Below, piece by piece: positions 1-11,061 of a DNA stretch of 64,000 bases. A program made the position numbers and the translations under genes. The notes beneath the pieces are model-generated. The model ran no database searches. It had not been told where the DNA came from and saw nothing but the letters and a program-made list of their open reading frames with translations. Origin of the DNA: an uncultured Gammaproteobacteria bacterium. Its GTDB lineage: Bacteria > Pseudomonadota > Gammaproteobacteria > CAWCPV01. The DNA lies in the NCBI GenBank assembly GCA_963797555.1, contig CAWCPV010000007.1:544001-608000 (forward strand). The letters run 5' to 3'. How positions within the stretch are numbered: position 1 is the stretch's first letter; every line of letters begins with the position of its first letter.

Positions 1-3000
1 TGCGCGTCGGCTTCCGACACCAGACCCTATTCGAATTCGTGCGCGCTCGCAGTTTTCTCGAGGAGTCGGGTCGGCTTACCAATGCCGTCGTCGCCCGGCA
101 AACCAGCCTGCGCGTTCGTCCGCAACTGTGGCATGCCCTGGGCTATCTGCGCGCAGCCGATCGCAGCACGTATCTTGGGGAGATCGAACTCCTTTGGCAC
201 GCCGATCTGCGTGCCCATTTGCGCGCGCTCGTCATCGAGTTCCTGGGGCGGATGCACGATCCCGAGCAGCGCGAAGCTCATCTGCTACTCGCGAGCTTCG
301 ATGACCCTTGGCACAGGCGTCGGATCTTGTCCGCCGTTGTCGGTAGCCCCGGCTGGTTTCGGTTGCTGATGCCCGGTCACTTGCCGATGCTGATGTCCGG
401 AACTGCTGAGGAAGCGTCGCAGGCACTCCCAGTTCTGCAAGCGGCTCTCGTCTTCGCCCGCGACGATGTACTTGAGCTGGCGGATTCCCATTGGATGGCT
501 CACATGGAACGGGACGTGGTGATATGGCGCCTGCTGGAAGAGGTACCGCAGTGGGACAATGCGGTGGTGGACCGGTTCTGCCGCGTTCTCGGCCGGACGG
601 AGATCGCCGCGTGGGCCGTGAACGCACTCGCGAGCAAGGTGAGCGCGGCACTGCCCAACGAGGCGCCTCGACTTGTCGCCGCATGGCTGCATCGCCAGCT
701 CAGATCTATTGCGACCAATGCCTCTGCCACAACATCAAACCGCGATGCCGACCCCACCGAGACCGCGGCGGGAGATATCAGCCAGATGGACCCGCACGCG
801 GGCTACCGCAAACTAGTCGGCGAGCAGCGACTGCACGACCTGCCCGCGGTCGCCGAGGCTGCCCCGTGGTCGTTCCTCAATGCTGTCTGGCCATGGTTCC
901 TCACGGTGCTGCAGCAAGCGGCCGAAGAACCGCACCCGTTCGTTATCGGGTACCGCGACGACCACGGTTTGGTTACGGACTGGGAGAACGACGCAGACCT
1001 CGAGCGCGAGCACCCACTTCTCAAAGCGCTGGAGATCGCAGTGGACGGAGTCGCGGCGCGAGAACCCCGCGCCTTCCTCGAGTTCGTCGAGACCCATCGC
1101 CGGCACGACTTGCTTATGCTTCTGGTACAGCGCCTGCTGGCCCGCGGAATGTTGCAGCTCGTCGATGCGTGGCCTAACGAGGTGCTTGAGTTTCTCACCG
1201 AGGATCCGCGGCGGTTTGCGCTGGAACCGTCGGCCAATGAGCACGCCGATTCACAGCGGTTGATAAGGGCCGTCGTTCCTCGCCTGGACGCGAGCGGCCG
1301 CCGGCGGCTGGAAGAGGCCCTTATTCGTTGGAGCCACTATACTCGTCATCCGGAGGACGAACCCGACGTTCGTTTACGCCGCCTGCGATGGAGCCGCGAG
1401 CACCGGCTCCGGCTGCTGCGCGCATTCCCGAGGGAGTACATGAGCGAGGATTGCCGCCAACTCCTCGATGCGGAAACGCGGGCTTTCCCCGACTTGAGTG
1501 ACCGAGATACGTGGTTTTCCGGCGTACGCGTGGTCGGTAGCCCAATGAGTCCAGAGCAGATGGCAAATGCAAAGGACGAGCACATTCTGAATCTCTTCGA
1601 AGAGCTTACCGATGACCATGGCTGGGACCACCCACAAAGCTGGGGCCGGGGTGGTCCGATACAGGCGGGGCGAGCTGGCATCGAAAGACCCGGAGCGAGG
1701 CGTCCGGATTGCTCGACTGCTACGACCAGTCCGAAACGAGTATCCGGTAAGCCAAGTGTTGGAAGGCTTGGTGAAGGGCGGCTACGCTCCCGAATCACTC
1801 TACACTTTGATCTTAGAACTTAGCCAGCGTGGATTCACAGGCGATGCATTCAGGCACGCCGCGGCTCGCGCCATAGCAACGGTCGTCTCCAGCGCACAAC
1901 CGTTGCCCGACGAGGTATTCCAACTGCTTGAGGGTTGGTTGGTCCCTGCGGATCGGATTTCTCGAGAGCGCTCGGAGGATCGGGATGATGTGAGAGAGAG
2001 GACAGCATTCTTTGGGGATATGCACGGATGCGGGTCCTGCCGCACGGAAACTATCCGATCCTGCAGGCGCTCTCGGAGGCTTGCCTCGTTGCCCAACCCA
2101 CTCAAGCGGTCCGTTGGCGCACTTTGTTGGAACGGCATCTGGGGCACGACGAAGATATTGAAGTGTGGGCGGCTATGGGGACCTATCTACAGTGGCTGCA
2201 TTTCGCGGACCGTAACCGAGCCGAAGATTTCATGCAGCGCCTGTGGGGCCGCTATCCTGAGCTTCTCGAACGAGTCGAGGGTATCCATCTCTTAGCCCAT
2301 GCACAGCACTGGGTGGGAGCAGAGCGGCTACGCCTGGCTAGAGACCACGCGCGGCAGGGGATCTCGCCTTGCCTGTCAGGGCTACGGTGAAGTCGCCATG
2401 CTGCGGCACGGCTTGTTCCCGCGCGAACAGTGGGCAACGGAGCGGGTCCGATCCATCGTGTACGGTGCGGCCTCCGATACATGCGTTCGAGCGGCTCGCG
2501 TCGGGGTGGCGCATAGTGCTGCCGCGCTGTGGAAGGAGGCTGAGTACCGTCCAGTGGCTCACCCGACCGTGGTCGCGCTGATCGCCGACAAGGATCCTGG
2601 CGTACTCAAAGCGCTAAGGGCCATATTTCGGGTCAAGGCCCTATTCCCAGACGACATGACTCGCGAGCTTTTGGATGCCATCTCCGCCAACCCGGCCATT
2701 CTTGGTCAGAACGACACAGAATTTCTGCTCGGACACCTCGAAGGACTAGTTGTAGGGGAGCCCGAGCGCGTCCACCGCGTGTGCCTCGCACTGCTCGACC
2801 GTTTCGGCGAACAGTTCGCCAGTCCCCATTCCCGGGCGTATCTCGATGGGGATATCTTGATTTCGATCGCCCTACGACTGCTAGAGCTGGGGCCATCGCA
2901 GCAGGAGCACGGCACCGAGCTATTCGAGCGGATGATGGAGCTCAACTTGCCGGGGATTACCGGAGTGCTGGTCGACCTCGACAAGCGGATGCCCAATACA

Positions 3001-3069
3001 CCGGCTTATGGACGCAATAGACCTCGGAGGCGCAGGAGACGGCAGGCAGACCGCGCTGACAACGGATAG
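1..3069 (+). CDS. C-terminal part of a large Avs4-like (AVAST/STAND NTPase) protein; 5' end outside window; frameshifted near 1665, 2020 and 2325
   Basis: Frame 3 starts RVGFRHQTLFEFVRARSF...QTSLRVRPQLWHALGYLR, resembling the post-NTPase F.HQT..(D/E)...AR.F...Q.LF.R...L.YLR segment of Avs4-type proteins. A long helical region continues through ORFs 39-1823, 1612-2295, 2028-2390 and 2299-3069. Confidence 0.6.
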
Positions 3070-3210
3070 CCCCTGAACCGAAAAATCCGTGCCTTCCTAT
3101 CCTGTGCTTAATACGCCGTGCAGCCACAATTGCCCCGATCGTCGGGCCACGAGTGCATACCGATGGGGGTGCCTAGCGTGACCGCGGTCATCGTGCCAGG
3201 CTGAACGCAT

Positions 3211-3624
3211 TTACCGTCGATATCCAACGCCCCAGACGCGCAACAGGGCCTGGCAGCCCGCATCAAAGGTGTCTGTGAAGTCCACGTGCTCGAAGCTCGA
3301 AAGCGTCCAAGAGAGCTGCTCGAAATCGCAGTCCTGGTGCAAGACGGGCACGATGCGCTCGTCGAAGCGCTCGTGCTGCAGCGCGTAAAGCAGCTCCCGC
3401 TTTACCCACCGGGACGCTACCGCGGCCGGGGACAACACCAGGACGAACCAATCACAACGCCGCAGGGCGGCGCCGATCTCGTCGTGCCATTGCCGGGCGC
3501 CCAGGATCGCCCGCCGACTGTACCACACCGGTAGCCCGTGCCTGACAAGCATGCCCGCCAAGCGCTCGGCGAACGCATGGTCCTGGTCGGAGTGGGACAG
3601 GAATAGTTCCTGGGGTGGTGCCAC
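3211..3624 (-). CDS. stand-alone TIR domain protein (TIR_2-like)
   Basis: LFLSHSDQD...VW...GARQWHDEIGAALRRCDWFVLVLSP...SRWVKRELLYAL...IVPVL; the putative catalytic Glu in WVKRE is present. Confidence 0.9.
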   Translation of the reverse strand: MAPPQELFLSHSDQDHAFAERLAGMLVRHGLPVWYSRRAILGARQWHDEIGAALRRCDWFVLVLSPAAVASRWVKRELLYALQHERFDERIVPVLHQDCDFEQLSWTLSSFEHVDFTDTFDAGCQALLRVWGVGYRR

Positions 3625-3645
3625 GGAAGCGCGTGAACAGGCTTA

Positions 3646-4050
3646 TCAGGCGGCTTCCGTGAGCAGGCTTGCGACGCGACGCAGACCTTCCCGGTCATCC
3701 CGGCCAAGTCTCACCGTTTGAAGACGTTTCAGGATCCAGGGTAGCTCCTCGTCCGGGACCTCTTGGGGCGTTCCTACGATGATGGGGACGAGTCGGCCCT
3801 TGAAAGTCTTCTCACCCAGGGCATACTCCAGCTCCGCCCGTACGAAACGCGAACGGACCCCCGCGGGCGTGAACAGGACCACCATGGCGTCCGAGTTCTG
3901 GAGCGCCTGCCCCGCCTCCAGCGCCAGGTTGTCTCCAGGCAGCACATCCCGCTCGGCGTCCCACACCTCGAGACCGGCTTCCTGCAGCGCGTCGCCCACA
4001 CGGCGCGCCAGATCCACGTCTTCGTGCGCGTGACTTAGGAAGACTTTCAT
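3646..4050 (-). CDS. stand-alone TIR domain protein (TIR_2-like)
   Basis: MKVFLSHAHED...GLEVWD...LPGDN...SDAMVVLFTP...SRFVRAELEYAL...LVPIIV; the putative catalytic Glu in FVRAE is present. Confidence 0.9.
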   Translation of the reverse strand: MKVFLSHAHEDVDLARRVGDALQEAGLEVWDAERDVLPGDNLALEAGQALQNSDAMVVLFTPAGVRSRFVRAELEYALGEKTFKGRLVPIIVGTPQEVPDEELPWILKRLQTVRLGRDDREGLRRVASLLTEAA

Positions 4051-4344
4051 GGAAAGAGCCTACTCGAACCCCAAATGGACTACAACCACCGTAGCAGGGC
4101 CCCACCGGCGCTGTTTTGGGTCCGTGCTGGCAGGCGCTGCTATCAAGGCTTCAGACCCCAGGCGAGAACTATCGGCAGCGTCGATCCGAATGAGCCGAAG
4201 CCCGAAGATCGCGTTGGCGGGTGCCCAACCGGGGCTGGCTGCCCTCCGGCCCAGAGCCGCATGAATACGTCTCTCCCATGGACCTGGGCCGATAAGGGCC
4301 TCGACCCCAGGAGATCTTCCTCCGGCAAGCGCTCTAGCCTCGCG

Positions 4345-4773
4345 TCACTGCCCCTCCAGAACCAGCCGGAGCGCTTCCTCCTTGATGCGTTCCTCGTTGA
4401 CCCTCTCGGCAAGCTCCAAGTCGCTGTACCGGCCGCCGAAGGCATCGAGAGAAGCCTGCCGCAGCGAAGAGGGGTAGATCTCCTCGATGCTCTGCCGCAG
4501 ATCATCGACACCGAGATAAGACCCCCCGGCCCTCCTGCGCCGGTTGACGCGCAGCACCCCGTCGACGGCGTTCTTGATGGAGACCTCCCAAGACCGTGTG
4601 GAGCGTTCCTCGGCGTGCTGTTTGACGAGGTGGACGAGGAGGATGTGCAGGAAGGCTTCGACCTTGTTTATCTTGTCGTCCCGGCTCATCTCCTCCATTT
4701 CCCCCAGAAGGGCAAGGGCCTCGGCATAACGGCCCTGTTCGATGTGCGCACGCAGCTCCAGAAGCTCTTCCAT
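4345..4773 (-). CDS. DUF29 family protein
   Basis: MEELLELRAHIEQGRY...EEMSRDDKINK...LLVHLVKQHAEERSTRSWEVSIKNA; ATG at 4773 with GAGGA upstream. Confidence 0.8.
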   Translation of the reverse strand: MEELLELRAHIEQGRYAEALALLGEMEEMSRDDKINKVEAFLHILLVHLVKQHAEERSTRSWEVSIKNAVDGVLRVNRRRRAGGSYLGVDDLRQSIEEIYPSSLRQASLDAFGGRYSDLELAERVNEERIKEEALRLVLEGQ

Positions 4774-5151
4774 TAGGCTGTCCTCGATTTCGTTCCCGGC
4801 GCGGAGAACCCTGTGGCCGCCCTCGACCGGCCATCGCTCCTCGCCCACCTCATGATACCGTGACTCTCCCGAGCCCAGGTGCGCTGGGCGCACTGCGTCT
4901 GGCCCGCGTACCTGCGCGAACCGGTGGAGCCGCGCCACCGCCTGTAGCCGCAGCTCGCGCTGGGCTTGCGCCGCTTTCACTTCGCCAGTCGAACCAAATC
5001 CTGAGGGTCCGATATTCCAGCGCCATTCTCCTCCGTGCCGGCGCCGAGCGAGGGGCGGCACGGACTTCTACGCAATGCAGGGCCAGGCCCGCGGCGCGCG
5101 CCGACTCACGGGCTCGCTTGCCCACGCGGGGCGGCTTGTGCGCCCAGGAAG

Positions 5152-7806
5152 TCAACGTCCGGGGCGGCTGGGCGCGCCACCGCGCTTGGCGAGCAGTCTC
5201 TTCAGCCGGCCCTGCGCGAGGAACAGCCGGTCGAACACGTGCAGGTGCAGGCGGGCGAGGGCGGCGCCGATCACCGCCATGCCCAGCCCGATCAGAAACT
5301 GCTGGACCGTCTTGCGGTAGTTCACGAGCTTCGAGACGATGCCGAGCCCCGCCAATGCGAGCACGGTGGTGCCTACCACCATCGCCGCGCCTCCCAGTGT
5401 CAGGCGCAAGATCTCACGGGTCCACCAACCGTAGAGGGCATAGCCCAGCAGCACCAGAAGCAGCAGGGCGAGCGCGCCGGCGGCGATCTGAAGCCGCCGG
5501 GACAGCAGCCAGATTTTGAAGAAGAGCTTATCGGCGACTTTGAGCTGGCGGACAAGCAGATTGCCGGGCGTCGGGTCTTTGAGCAAGGGCTCGCTCACAA
5601 GAAACTTCCACTCCTCGCGAGGCGGCTGCTTCACCTCGAAGCCCAGGATGGGCTCCTTGAGTGCGTGCTCGGTCATCAGATAACCGCTGGTCATGAGTGC
5701 ATACGCCTCTGCTTCCGAGAAGGAGTCGAGGTCGGTGCGGATGGCGGCCAGCCGACGCTGGACGTGCTTCTGCACTCCGTATTCGGTGAGTGGGTTGGCG
5801 CGTTGCGGCTCGGACGGGTCCTGCGAGCCGATCCAGTCCACGGGCGTGGTCTCCAGGCCCTTCTTTAGGTGCACGAACATCAGCCCCTTCAGCAGCCCGC
5901 CGCGCCGCCGCCCCTCCAAGTCCTGGAACTGGCTCACGCGGACGCGCGCCTGCAGGATGCTGTTCGAGCGGAGCGGCACCCCCAGCAGCCCGTTGCTCGG
6001 GAAGTCCTGCGCATCCATCTGCCCGCTGGCGTCGCTCACCAGCAATACCGAGCAGCCTTGCTCCAGCAGCGCCGCTACACCCTGATTGTCGTGCACTCCG
6101 CCATCGACCAGTCTCACCACCGGCTGAACCTTCCGATCCCCCTCCTCGGGCATGTACTCGTAGAGATTCGCCAGGGGCAGCGGCTCGAAGATGCCCGGCA
6201 CGCAGGACGAGGCCGCGACGGCGTAACCCAGGCGCACGCGCTGGTGGGGCTCGGGCGCCTGCTCGTAGTACATGCGCCTCAGGCGGTAGTTGGCATCGAC
6301 CTCGGAGTCGATGCCGGCGGGCGGCTCGCCCATCCAGGTCGCGGTGAACTGCCAGTTGTGGCCGGTGTTGAGCGAGGTGGCGTTGAGCATCAGGATGGGC
6401 ACCTTCGCCGAGCGGCGCCAGTTGCCATCCTTGGGTACGAAGCCCTCGGGCTCGCCTTTCGGGAAGACCTTGAGCTCGTTGAGCCACCGCTCGCGGCCGC
6501 CCTCGCCGTCCTCGACCTTGGAGAAGATCTCGGTCTCGTACAGCTCTCCGGCGCGCTTGGTGCGAGAGTAGTCGCGCACGAACATCATCTTGATGTTGGT
6601 GAGCCACTCGGCGGCGATGCGGGTGCGGATGTTGCGCTCCACGCCTGCCAAAAACCGTTCGGTGGTGCGCTGCACGATGGCGATATAGTCGTCGCGCGTG
6701 ATCGCCGAGTCGGCCTTGTCCTGCAGCAGCTTACGCACCTCCAGGTAGAAGTGGGCCCCGATGATGGAGCCGCCGGAGACGCAGGAGAGGTATTCGACGT
6801 GGCGCAGCAGATCCAGCTCGGCGAGCTTGGCGAGCACCCCGATATGGTACAGAGAGGCCCGGAAGCCGCCGCCCGAGAGCGCGAGCCCCACCTTGCCGCG
6901 AATCACCGAGGCGACGGCGGCAAAGCTGTCCCCGAGGAACTTGCGCAGCGCCTCCTGTCCCCGCGTATCGACCGGCTCGCTGCGGCGGGCCGCTCCGTCT
7001 TGCTTCAAGCGCAGCAGGGTAGCGAGCTGCCGCGCGGTGCTCTCCCGCTCCCAGTCCGCCACTCCCTCCAGCGCATTCGCCCGCGTCAGCCATTCCTCGG
7101 CCTTCTCGTAGTCATCGAGACCGAAGTACGCCTCGCCGAGCGTGACCAGGAACCACCAGGTCTCGTTGAGCCATGCCTCTTGCGCGGGCAAGTCCGGCAG
7201 GGCTGCCACGATGGCCTCGCGGATGGCGCGCGCCTGCGCCCGCCGCAGCGCGGCCGTGCTCTCGGAGGCGCCCGAAAGTTCGGCGGCGAGCTGAGCCTCC
7301 GGGCTCTCCAGGTCGGCCAGCAGGTCGAGCACGAAGGCGGCGTTGATCCCCGTGTAGCCGTAGTCGGAAACGACGCCCTGCTGGTAGCCCCGGAGGTAGT
7401 AGGCGAGCGAGGTCTCGAGCTGGCGCTCCTGCGCAGTCAGCTCCCACATCCGCTTGTGGATGGCACCCGCGAGCCCGAGTGTCTCCTGGTTCACCGTCTT
7501 GCCGAGGTCGTCCGCCTCGCGCAGGATGCGCAGCGCCCGCTCGAGCTTCTCGTCGGCTTGCAGGTCCGGGTCCTTGTAGGTCGAGAGAGCGCGTTTCTGC
7601 GCGAACACGAGACGCTGGTCGGGACTGCCGGCGACGCGGACATCCGCGCTGTAGCGGTCGAGGAGCTTGCGGGCAGGCCCGAATACGCGATCCCGGTGCA
7701 GGCACTTGACGAGGTCCAACACTTCGTCGGGCGTCGCCGACGCGCCGCTCAGGATGCCGTTGACCCTCTCTTTGCACCGCTCCAATGAGGCGGACTGATC
7801 TGCCAT
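5152..7806 (-). CDS. patatin-like phospholipase with N-terminal TPR-S/DUF4071-like domain and about 3 C-terminal TM helices
   Basis: Oxyanion motif LSGGGFRA, nucleophile CVSGGS and DGG (LVDGGVHDNQG). N-terminal ETLGLAGAIHKRMW...Y.RGY...YTGINAA is typical of TPR-S/DUF4071. Hydrophobic helices lie at the C-terminus. Confidence 0.88.
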   Translation of the reverse strand: MADQSASLERCKERVNGILSGASATPDEVLDLVKCLHRDRVFGPARKLLDRYSADVRVAGSPDQRLVFAQKRALSTYKDPDLQADEKLERALRILREADDLGKTVNQETLGLAGAIHKRMWELTAQERQLETSLAYYLRGYQQGVVSDYGYTGINAAFVLDLLADLESPEAQLAAELSGASESTAALRRAQARAIREAIVAALPDLPAQEAWLNETWWFLVTLGEAYFGLDDYEKAEEWLTRANALEGVADWERESTARQLATLLRLKQDGAARRSEPVDTRGQEALRKFLGDSFAAVASVIRGKVGLALSGGGFRASLYHIGVLAKLAELDLLRHVEYLSCVSGGSIIGAHFYLEVRKLLQDKADSAITRDDYIAIVQRTTERFLAGVERNIRTRIAAEWLTNIKMMFVRDYSRTKRAGELYETEIFSKVEDGEGGRERWLNELKVFPKGEPEGFVPKDGNWRRSAKVPILMLNATSLNTGHNWQFTATWMGEPPAGIDSEVDANYRLRRMYYEQAPEPHQRVRLGYAVAASSCVPGIFEPLPLANLYEYMPEEGDRKVQPVVRLVDGGVHDNQGVAALLEQGCSVLLVSDASGQMDAQDFPSNGLLGVPLRSNSILQARVRVSQFQDLEGRRRGGLLKGLMFVHLKKGLETTPVDWIGSQDPSEPQRANPLTEYGVQKHVQRRLAAIRTDLDSFSEAEAYALMTSGYLMTEHALKEPILGFEVKQPPREEWKFLVSEPLLKDPTPGNLLVRQLKVADKLFFKIWLLSRRLQIAAGALALLLLVLLGYALYGWWTREILRLTLGGAAMVVGTTVLALAGLGIVSKLVNYRKTVQQFLIGLGMAVIGAALARLHLHVFDRLFLAQGRLKRLLAKRGGAPSRPGR

Positions 7807-8076
7807 CGTTCTTCCTCCCTATATTTCAAGTGGTTCGTAGAGGCGCCGGCCCGAACCCTCCCGCCGCACTTCTCAGGACCCCATCTCGACATAGAGTCGT
7901 CGGGCCATCAAACCCCGGGCCGAACGGCCGGACCGCTGTGAAAGCCGGTCCAGACAGATGCTTACCCGCCCCGTGGTATCAGAACGCCAAGTACACATGA
8001 TGCACCACCGTGCGGGGGCCAACTATTTCGGCGCAACACATCGGCCAGGCCGCTTCGGCTGAAGCACTCGCCGCCT

Positions 8077-8745
8077 TCATGACCGCTCCTTGGCCTGCTG
8101 CACCGCCCAGCGGTATACCTGGTCGAATTTGGTCTCTCCATGCGCGGGCGGGGCCAGCAACGGGCGGAACTTGGGATCGTAGAGGAAGTATTGCCCCTCG
8201 GACGGAAACAGCGTTGGGGCGTGGGGCCGGGGCTTGGACGTTGAGCCCGCCCACATCGAGTTGCCACAGGAACCGCGCGGCGTCCATGAGGGCCAGCCAG
8301 ACGGGGGAGGCGTCGTTGCGCTGGAGAAGCAACGAAAGCAGGCGGATATCCCACAGCCCCACGGTTCTGTCTAAAGACCCCGAGGAGAGCGTGAGCCCAT
8401 CGGGGCTGAAGGCGACGCTGCTCACGCCAGCGCCGAGGTCCAGGGCCGGAGAGGCCCAGCGCTGGTCGAAGGCGGAGCCTGCCACCGCCGGATCAAGGAA
8501 CTTGCCCACCGTTGCCAGCTCAAGCGCGGGGCAGACCCGGTGCGATGCGCTGGTCCAGCTCTGCCGCGGCATACAACCAGGCGCGCCAGTGGGCCATGGT
8601 GTCATGGGCGATGCTCGCCTCGTTCAGTGCGTTCAGGGCCTTTTCCTCGTACGCTTTGGCAAGGTTGAAGTTGGCGGCGAACGCTCGCGGGCTGGAGTCG
8701 GTTGTCACGGGGACGGCGCTCGAGTGCCTCGGACACGCTGGATTT
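8077..8745 (-). pseudogene. remnant of a WD40-repeat protein (C-terminal part, single repeat)
   Basis: VSSVAFSPDGLTLSSGSLDRTVGLWD is one WD40 repeat. Flanking segments are in shifted frames (ANFNLAKAYEEKA...; ...FRPLLAPPAHGETKFDQVYRWA*). No start codon or N-terminus. Confidence 0.7.
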
Positions 8746-8751
8746 CGATAG

Positions 8752-8779
8752 GCGCGTCTGCCAGCTTCGCCACCCCGGC
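8752..8779 (-). pseudogene. 5' fragment of a tRNA (Leu-type), truncated after the D-arm
   Basis: Minus strand reads GCCGGGGTGGCGAAGCTGGCAGACGCGC, an acceptor 5' strand plus a Leu-type D-arm. No anticodon stem, T-arm or CCA follows. The position divergent from queA matches the tRNA-Leu locus known in Pseudomonas. Confidence 0.65.
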
Positions 8780-8841
8780 GATGGCCGACTCACCCTTGTC
8801 AGGGTATCTCAAGAACGCCGTCAGGCGGTGCGCGCCGCCTC

Positions 8842-8850
8842 TGCTATAGT
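8842..8850 (+). promoter_or_regulatory. extended -10 element of queA
   Basis: TGCTATAGT lies 8 nt upstream of the queA ATG. Confidence 0.45.
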
Positions 8851-8858
8851 ATCCGGCC

Positions 8859-11061
<2,203 letters not shown>

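Follow-up and report, generated by a model that had tools for sequence, protein, structure and literature searches.

Thoeris systems of types I, II, and III combine a single effector gene with one or several divergent genes for TIR proteins (ThsB), and the TIRs are exchanged freely among effectors. By its fold, the TPR-S domain belongs to the same family as the MAP3K TRAF-binding region of ASK kinases in animals. Burroughs and Aravind reportedly defined TPR-S systems in 2020 (J Bacteriol) and are said to have predicted TIR/TPR assemblies, patatin-containing ones included. Here we analyze a locus at positions 3211-7806 of a 64,000-nucleotide (nt) stretch of DNA, hereafter the window, from an uncultured Gammaproteobacteria bacterium (assembly GCA_963797555.1, contig CAWCPV010000007.1, positions 544,001 to 608,000). 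In this locus, the gene for a protein of 884 amino acids (aa) that combines a TPR-S domain, a patatin domain, and predicted transmembrane (TM) helices, hereafter the effector, is found on the same strand as the genes for two stand-alone TIR proteins, TIR1 and TIR2. We read the locus, with a probability of roughly 0.6, as a Thoeris-like TIR-signaling abortive-infection module formed by the TIR pair and the TPR-S-patatin effector.

The accessible text of a preprint by Yirmiya et al. (bioRxiv 10.64898/2025.12.03.692087) reports the validation of Thoeris types V-XI. Type VIII consists of a ThsB TIR and the effector ThsI, whose TPR the authors equate with the Aravind-group prediction, and cells with type VII or type VIII cease to grow when cyclic ADP-ribose (cADPR) is added. 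Phospholipases appear there among 29 putative types of Thoeris effectors, and islands are described in which numerous ThsB genes occur together with several effectors. According to the available part of a second preprint (bioRxiv 10.1101/2023.05.26.542521), the 2020 dataset of Burroughs and Aravind contains 29 of 78 Tpr cores that stand alone, 28 of 78 in Tir-Tpr arrangements, and four Patatin-Tpr cases; anti-phage activity is reported in the same text for BcTir/BcTpr of B. cereus.

Gene Content and Layout of the Locus

The minus strand of the locus carries four intact open reading frames (ORFs) without internal stops, as the initial annotation of the window had stated (Table 1). All four genes show the pattern of guanine-plus-cytosine (GC) content by codon position that is found in the housekeeping neighbors; this pattern is absent from 4051-4344. 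The effector gene and the TIR pair are 1.1 kb apart on the same strand, with a DUF29 gene and two spacers between them. Gaps of about 300-380 bp, which had been described as separating the genes, exist at the two junctions that flank the DUF29 gene (294 nt and 378 nt), whereas TIR2 and TIR1, the latter downstream of the former, are only 21 nt apart. The window was also said to lack a CD-NTase and a SIR2-type ThsA. This agrees with our Pfam search, in which no SMODS or SIR2_2 match was found in the window; matches in the genome occur only on contig C2, on contig C9, and at C7:245 kb, and the single SMODS match is at C2:179888, on another contig.

Table 1. Features of the locus, with positions given in the coordinates of the window.
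Feature	Position	Strand	Description
TIR1	3211..3624	-	137 aa, stand-alone TIR; Pfam TIR_2, E 1.7e-25
TIR2	3646..4050	-	134 aa, stand-alone TIR; Pfam TIR_2, E 4.1e-24
Spacer DUF29/TIR2	4051..4344	-	294 nt; GC by codon position 0.70/0.63/0.59, without coding pattern
DUF29 gene	4345..4773	-	142 aa; Pfam DUF29, E 3.5e-6; own GAGGA ribosome-binding site
Spacer effector/DUF29	4774..5151	-	378 nt; without Pfam-bearing ORF; not conserved in relatives
Effector gene	5152..7806	-	884 aa; TPR-S, patatin, and three C-terminal TM helices (predicted)
TPR-S core	7330..7671	-	aa 46-159; Pfam; genome match C7:551330-551671
Patatin catalytic domain	5869..6891	-	about aa 306-646; GGGFR, Ser344 in CVSGG, Asp568 in DGG
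Three predicted TM helices	5242..5508	-	aa 767-855; Kyte-Doolittle and helices of the AlphaFold2 model

The TPR-S-Patatin Effector

Patatin-like phospholipases carry an oxyanion motif G-G-G-x-R/K, a nucleophile motif G-x-S-x-G, and an aspartate in D-G-A/G. The effector has all three, with GGGFR at aa 312, CVSGG at aa 342, and DGG at aa 568; in the nucleophile motif a cysteine takes the place of the first glycine. These motifs are invariant across an alignment of 69 sequences, whose members are 57-76% identical to the effector from the window. Many polar and aromatic positions of the helical N-terminal domain are likewise invariant in this alignment, namely T76, Y77, D79, D81, E108, G111, K118, W121, Y137, D148, N155, R196, W252, E255, R259, and Q260. 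Pfam recognized the TPR-S domain with an E-value of 1.6e-15 (57.9 bits against a cut-off of 27.6) and a Patatin domain at aa 308-579 with an E-value of 6.7e-13; beyond these, only weak TPR matches were obtained. Hydrophobic segments (Kyte-Doolittle, window of 19, value of at least 1.6) are located at aa 767-796, 799-828, and 833-855. The architecture given in the initial annotation, a TPR-S head followed by complete patatin motifs and about three TM helices, was thereby borne out.

The model calculated with AlphaFold2 from the 69-sequence alignment has a mean predicted local distance difference test (pLDDT) value of 85.6 and a predicted template modeling score of 0.87. It is helical to about aa 303, continues as an alpha/beta domain, and ends in three long helices (aa 770-796, 804-827, and 834-865); the helical N-terminal domain as a whole would comprise about aa 1-303. 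In a Foldseek search against the PDB, the best matches of the model were AbCapV (9kej, E 1.9e-5), PlpD (5fya), CapE (9ioq, E 2.2e-4), and patatin (1oxw). The query-normalized template modeling scores of these matches are low (0.19-0.26) because only the lipase domain of the effector was aligned. A sequence search of the PDB with the effector gave no match, and in NCBIfam none of the four genes had a match above the cut-off. Among the checks that had been proposed for the locus (DefenseFinder or PADLOC, and HHpred or AlphaFold), PADLOC assigned the effector to 0 families, and AlphaFold2 yielded a confident model with a CapV-like lipase fold.

At least 3,538 homologs of the effector were found at E ≤ 1e-3 among 8,000 candidates scored. 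The best 120 of these are 57-100% identical to it, and nearly all of them consist of TPR-S and Patatin alone. The best relatives are spread over several phyla; in 30 genomes of the same class no ortholog was present, and only matches to the patatin domain at E ≥ 1e-10 were obtained. A second TPR-S protein, encoded in the same genomic island, is 27% identical to the TPR-S domain of the effector (E 3e-6), and the two have the motifs ET.G..G..K..WE, Y.GINA, and WE.E.TAR in common.

TIR Genes Next to Relatives of the Effector

We surveyed 160 loci with effector matches, 80 from species genomes and 80 from metagenomes; 151 of these contain a true family member (phmmer score of at least 400). A profile iterated from TIR1 and TIR2 over the ORFs of the loci recovered 67 TIR ORFs, which are distributed over 49 of the 160 loci. 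In family loci, with the effector ORF itself excluded, 60 of 63 TIR ORFs matched Pfam TIR_2 at E ≤ 1e-3. Their distribution with distance from the effector is summarized in Table 2. In the nearest bin, 27 TIR ORFs were observed versus about 1.3 expected from the density at 4-8 kb, an excess of about 20-fold over the 151 loci; at 1-2 kb the enrichment over the density at 4-8 kb is about 4.6-fold. TIR neighbors, whose frequency the initial annotation had proposed as a measure, are strongly enriched close to the effector. When only loci with the respective length of flank on both sides are counted, a TIR is present within 300 bp in 21 of 108 loci, within 1 kb in 23 of 86, and within 2 kb in 25 of 70.

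Table 2. TIR ORFs by distance from the effector gene in the 151 family loci.
Distance	TIR ORFs	Co-oriented	Sequence examined (kb)	TIR ORFs per 10 kb
0-300 bp	27 (in 27 loci)	25	79	3.42
0.3-1 kb	6	3	169	0.36
1-2 kb	15	13	205	0.73
2-4 kb	8	6	351	0.23
4-8 kb	7	4	441	0.16

Close relatives of the effector are followed by a TIR ORF on the same strand. This ORF overlaps the effector stop in L084 and L085 (69% identity) and in L149 (71%), and in L083 (73% identity to the effector) it is 286 nt away. A TIR ORF also abuts or overlaps the effector stop in L003, L027, L031, L068, and L116. On the other side, a TIR gene is located 4-12 nt upstream of ParA/STAND-effector fusions in L120, L131, L137, L140, and L142, and an upstream TIR gene is also present at L026.

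In other relatives, additional domains are fused to the effector. A TIR domain forms the N-terminus in P0079 and L115. ParA precedes TPR-S-patatin together with TIR and NB-ARC in L108 and L120, with NB-ARC in L140, with nSTAND1 in L131 and L137, and with pentapeptide repeats in L026; pYEATS (L043), nSTAND1 (L051), and AAA_35 (P0098) occur in the same position. Among 127 immediate neighbors in the 80 genome loci, TPR-S (10), MAP3K_TRAF_bd (9), and TIR_2 (6) are the commonest domains, and a second TPR-S gene is located directly upstream of the effector in L037, L069, L086, L090, L091, and L099. The adjacency excess and the fusions show what appears to be a functional tie between the effector family and TIRs in general.

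In L104 (positions 8376-9304) and also in L105, a TIR ORF downstream of the effector relative is followed by a stretch in another frame that resembles the TM region of the effector; in L104, this stretch is similar to effector aa 798-875 (36% identity). The TIR in these two loci may be anchored by helices of the effector type.

The TIR Pair

TIR1 and TIR2 are 37% identical to one another. Both contain a glutamate of the catalytic type, E77 in the SRWVKRE motif of TIR1 and E73 in the SRFVRAE motif of TIR2 (positions counted by hand), and both residues align with the near-invariant glutamate of the 63 TIR ORFs from related loci. Thoeris requires one or more TIR genes with a catalytic glutamate, and TIR1 and TIR2 are genes of this kind; on the NCBIfam model for the type III protein ThcB4 they score 28-30 bits versus a cut-off of 220. 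Among solved structures, the closest sequences are PdTIR (3h16) and the AbTir type for TIR1 and the AbTir type (7uxr, 7uwg) for TIR2; the AbTir-type structures nearest to the pair are 7uxr, 7uwg, and 8g83.

The model of a TIR2-TIR1 heterodimer scored 0.69 versus 0.00 for the best control, with contacts at least 97% consistent across runs and a partner pLDDT of at least 87. Of 78 solved complexes, 51 attain the mark applied to this score, as do two of 108 mismatched pairs. The pass may reflect the memory of, or likeness to, solved TIR-TIR assemblies and not binding of the pair itself. The protein P0241 (283 aa), for which TIR domains alone are on record, joins a TIR2-like to a TIR1-like domain, in this order, and aligns end to end with window positions 3217-4050 at 51% identity when the stops are read through. 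Because P0241 spans both domains, TIR2/TIR1 is a unit that occurs in fused form elsewhere. A search for P0241 in 400 genomes of the phylum returned two weak matches only, and these provided no context. TIR2 and TIR1 are a paralogous pair that probably acts as a heterodimer or hetero-oligomer.

A further protein, P0243 (768 aa), has a TIR1-like C-terminus (51% identical to TIR1) and a second TIR at its start; a P-loop-like GMGGLGKT motif was recognized by eye.

The Genomic Island

The source genome (5.35 Mb in 20 contigs, 84.6% complete) has 18 TIR_2 and two TPR-S matches in Pfam; six of the former and both of the latter are located at C7:532.6-551.7 kb. This island of about 20 kb is flanked by an isoamylase gene and by queA-tgt-secDF, and it reaches beyond the edge of the window. 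To the left of the window it continues for about 12 kb (L081:6528-17235 = C7:532528-543235), with four more TIR genes and the second TPR-S protein. In order, the island begins with genes for a TIR-nSTAND1-FGE-sulfatase protein and a MAP3K_TRAF_bd/TPR-S protein. Next come an FxsC-like TIR gene, a ParA-TPR gene, and a minus-strand gene for a TIR of 146 aa. A TIR ORF of 229 aa, which overlaps a NACHT-like ORF of about 860 aa, and two ORFs without a Pfam match then lead up to the effector/DUF29/TIR2/TIR1 set. The locus is clearly a conflict island, and adjacency in this single genome weighs little by itself.

Several genes of the island merit a separate description. The FxsC-like TIR (L081:11461-12111; NF040588, 40.8 bits, under the cut-off) is encoded directly upstream of the ParA-TPR gene (L081:12048-14912), whose product is of the ParA (KGGVGR AAA) kind and passes the NCBIfam model FxSxx_TPR with 511 bits versus 300. 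The MAP3K_TRAF_bd/TPR-S protein (L081:9858-11192) has 444 aa from its first start, in a frame that is open for 537 aa. The TGA of a 167-aa ORF without a Pfam match (L081:9358-9861) overlaps the ATG of this gene (ATGA); the two may be a ThsI-like effector that has been split, either into a coupled gene pair or through a frameshift. The FGE-sulfatase domain of the TIR-nSTAND1 protein (L081:6528-8921) runs on in another frame (8746-9285), and at L168:546-1235 a TIR ORF overlaps the NACHT-like ORF (935-3823), which is NTPase from its first residues. These two split-looking genes, in L081 and L168, reflect either genuine frameshifts (pseudogenes) or indel errors introduced in assembly.

Inside the window, three plus-strand ORFs (39-1823, 1612-2295, and 2299-3069) converge on TIR1 and have no significant match in Pfam or PADLOC; the first of them encodes the end of the NACHT-like protein whose ORF comes after a TIR ORF. 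The three could serve a different TIR system as its output genes. Two ORFs between the effector and queA (7979-8605 on the minus strand and 8010-8849 on the plus strand) overlap one another without a clear coding GC pattern, and one has a WD40 repeat (E 4.5e-7); they are probably the remnant of a WD40-repeat gene. A search for repeats in the window gave short chance-level pairs only and no island borders, and neither a tRNA nor a dip in GC content was found. The borders of the island are not comparable through synteny because the 30 genomes of the same class contain no ortholog of the effector. When the flanks of the window were compared by tblastx to those of 10 close loci, short segments only were matched, and the flanks are not conserved.

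The DUF29 Gene

The DUF29 match in Pfam is weak yet above threshold (27.7 bits versus a cut-off of 22.5). Judged from the DNA, the gene starts with the ATG at 4773, which is preceded by GAGGA, in a frame open to 4776. We rejected the possibility that 96 in-frame codons upstream of this ATG are coding, since homologs are 138-175 aa long and GAGGA precedes the ATG at 4773. The 572 homologs come from many lineages and are 60-91% identical; the gene is single-copy in the source genome, and 399 other genomes of the class contained no match at E ≤ 1e-5. A PDB sequence search returned noise only (E ≥ 0.12). The initial annotation had listed DUF29 among the co-oriented genes of its candidate defense system. 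A role as a component is not supported: at E ≤ 1e-3, DUF29 matches occur in none of the 160 related loci, and the gene is probably an unrelated passenger outside the system.

Proposed Mechanism and Alternative Explanations

If the locus is a TIR-signaling module, TIR2 and TIR1 would be a ThsB-like sensor and synthase that, on phage infection, would convert nicotinamide adenine dinucleotide (NAD+) into a signal derived from ADP-ribose. Our best guess for this signal is canonical cADPR because type VIII Thoeris, which signals through cADPR, has an effector with a TPR of the same kind. Binding of the signal to the N-terminal TPR-S of the 884-aa protein would release the patatin domain (Ser344/Asp568). 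The three C-terminal helices would hold this phospholipase at the inner membrane, where it would degrade membrane lipids, and the cell would die or arrest before the phage matures. We infer the production and identity of the signal, its binding by TPR-S, the activation of the lipase, and the role in phage defense, and also that these two TIRs, rather than others of the island, feed this effector. A more extended proposal is tentative, and we regard it as possible, if short of probable: the locus would represent a distinct and widespread type of Thoeris, in which a minimal-TIR heterodimer makes the signal and the TPR-S head gates a membrane lipase; the same cassette would be the output stage of apoptosis-like ParA/STAND proteins; and TPR-S would be a general receiver of TIR products that links diffusible-signal and NTPase-switch systems.

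Several findings speak against the interpretation as a module. The TIR genes of the window are found 1.1 kb downstream of the effector, behind DUF29 and two spacers. TIR1 and TIR2 are not co-inherited partners of the effector, since their identity to the TIRs found next to related effectors is only about 30%. With six TIR genes within about 16 kb of the island and 18 in the genome, chance adjacency is much likelier than in an average genome. In 45 of the 70 loci with 2-kb flanks no TIR is present within 2 kb, and none was found within 8 kb in L001 and L002, the two genome relatives closest to the effector; because most family loci, these two included, are without a nearby TIR, the effector may act without a dedicated one. 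On a FastTree phylogeny of 132 family members with 89 labeled rows, in which the window was scored by hand as TIR-positive although its TIR is at 1.1 kb, the TIR label is scattered: 23 changes compare with a mean of 25 in shuffled data, and 101-110 of 500 shuffles did no worse. The TIR is often absent and scattered on the tree, and therefore the effector gene travels alone, gaining and losing TIR partners often. The effector matches no PADLOC or NCBIfam model, and the equivalence of the ThsI TPR to Pfam TPR-S is taken from the wording of a preprint. A promoter and terminator scan of 2900-8900 is uninformative about co-transcription; it found one promoter-like and two terminator-like sites, no more than in shuffled sequences and none in the minus-strand spacers.

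The alternative that fares best is that the genes are independent cargo of the island. The effector would then be self-contained and respond to another cue or to a signal supplied in trans, and TIR2/TIR1 would be an autonomous NAD+-depleting pair or the partner of other genes. The TIR-free loci, the two spacers (294 and 378 nt) on either side of an unrelated DUF29 gene, the crowding of six TIR genes in the island, the non-conserved flanks of relatives, and the scatter of the TIR label all fit independent cargo, as does the existence of the TIR pair as a unit of its own in P0241. We nevertheless consider this explanation unlikely. Against it stand the fusions and the excess, about 20-fold, of co-oriented TIR ORFs immediately beside the effector; the TIR genes of the window are co-oriented and on the downstream side of the effector, as in its nearest relatives, and even TIR ORFs at 1-2 kb are enriched and mostly co-oriented. 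The link between TIRs and effector that the initial annotation had proposed is partly supported, by the excess within 300 bp and by the TIR-effector fusions; most of the loci are without a TIR.

Much less probable is a role of the TIRs as adaptors instead of synthases, in which they would make TIR-TIR contacts with the TIR-STAND and TIR-ParA proteins of the island in an apoptosis-like network, and the lipase would be recruited or released through protein contacts on the TPR. TIR1 and TIR2 both retain the glutamate of active enzymes, and the invariant polar and aromatic pattern of TPR-S is common to a TPR-S protein with a different partner domain, which fits a common small ligand; moreover, the addition of cADPR elicits a response of the type VIII effector, according to the accessible text of bioRxiv 10.64898/2025.12.03.692087. 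In favor of such a network, the island encodes the TIR-nSTAND1-FGE protein, the pair of FxsC-like TIR and FxsT-like ParA-TPR, and a TIR with a NACHT-like gene; relatives of the effector are fused to ParA, TIR, NB-ARC, and nSTAND1 modules; and P0243 has a TIR1-like domain at the end of 768 aa and another TIR at its start. Multimerizing inactive TIRs are proposed for such systems in the available part of bioRxiv 10.64898/2026.10.19.760177, and a TIR-Tpr protein complex (BcTir/BcTpr) is reported in that of bioRxiv 10.1101/2023.05.26.542521.

A housekeeping or stress-related membrane lipase outside of defense, with a generic protein-interaction TPR and incidental TIR neighbors, would suit the large and well-conserved family, with its best 120 matches given at 57-77% identity, the lack of a GC anomaly, and the adjoining queA-tgt-secDF genes, but it is highly improbable given the patchy distribution (0 orthologs in 30 same-class genomes, best relatives from several phyla), the conflict domains among neighbors and fusions (TIR, STAND, ParA, pYEATS, second TPR-S proteins), and the position of the gene in a TIR/STAND island.

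Comparison with Known Systems

The pairing of TIR, TPR, and patatin, whose novelty the initial annotation had implied, is not new: such assemblies were catalogued in 2020, as stated in the available part of bioRxiv 10.1101/2023.05.26.542521, and phospholipases are already named among Thoeris effectors in the accessible text of bioRxiv 10.64898/2025.12.03.692087. Our literature search on TPR-S/TIR/patatin, DUF4071/TIR, and patatin/Thoeris found no experimental study of a TPR-S-patatin effector. As judged from the sequences compared here, the apparently new elements are a large family in which TPR-S, patatin, and TM helices are fused directly, the quantified linkage of this family to TIRs, the ParA/STAND-fused forms of the effector, and the occurrence of the TIR pair in both split and fused form.

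This large and highly conserved effector family is recognized by none of the defense-finder models tried. If the effector does answer TIR products, a membrane-lipase output would be added to Thoeris, and the locus would offer a clean system for studying how TPR-S reads NAD+-derived nucleotides. The fused and split forms of TIR2/TIR1 provide a test of obligate-heterodimer Thoeris synthases, and the ParA/STAND fusions suggest that small-molecule and NTPase-switch immunity share parts.

Types I, II, and III of Thoeris use SIR2-SLOG, Macro-TM, or SLOG effectors, none of which is present here. The locus has the marks of a TPR-S conflict system, in which TPR-S is joined to effector domains or encoded next to them and TIR genes are close by. 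In the TPR-S-centered TIR systems, as far as the available part of bioRxiv 10.1101/2023.05.26.542521 describes them, a core TPR-S protein is likewise neighbored by TIR genes, and solitary and TIR-linked cores are mixed as in the family studied here. BcTir/BcTpr differs: according to the same text, BcTpr has an N-terminal glycosidase-type NADase and reportedly makes a cADPR isomer itself, in complex with BcTir, whereas here TPR-S is fused directly to patatin and TM helices.

The resemblance to TIR-ParA systems of the FxsC/FxsT type (bioRxiv 10.64898/2026.10.19.760177, available part) lies in the effector relatives that carry ParA (L108, L120, L131, L137, L140, and L026) and in the canonical pair of FxsC-like TIR and FxsT-like genes 10 kb away in the same island. 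The effector of the window, in contrast, has no ParA or STAND module, and the word patatin has 0 occurrences in the part of that preprint's text that is available.

Type VIII Thoeris and the cyclic-oligonucleotide-based anti-phage signaling system (CBASS) are the systems to which the two ends of the effector point. In type VIII, too, a TIR gene is found beside an effector with a TPR sensor, and the signal there is derived from NAD+ (canonical cADPR) and leads to growth arrest; a TPR sensor of the Aravind type is present here as the Pfam TPR-S domain. ThsI, however, is a soluble protein whose enzymatic domain is annotated as a cytidine monophosphate (CMP) hydrolase, whereas the effector is a patatin lipase with three predicted TM helices; Pfam detects TPR-S, Patatin, and weak TPR matches only in the 884-aa protein and no CMP-hydrolase domain. 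The locus also has two TIR genes, and these are 1.1 kb off with DUF29 in between.

CapV and CapE of CBASS are the best structural matches; they share the Ser-Asp chemistry of patatins, and as membrane lipases they are activated through a nucleotide second messenger. Their chains of 300-345 residues differ from the effector in having neither the TPR-S head of about 300 aa nor a TM anchor; no CD-NTase is encoded nearby in our locus, and the PADLOC effector models miss the 884-aa protein. Because it has no CMP-hydrolase domain and no nearby CD-NTase, the locus is a member of neither type VIII Thoeris nor CBASS; its input side is like that of type VIII Thoeris, and its output side is like CBASS CapV.

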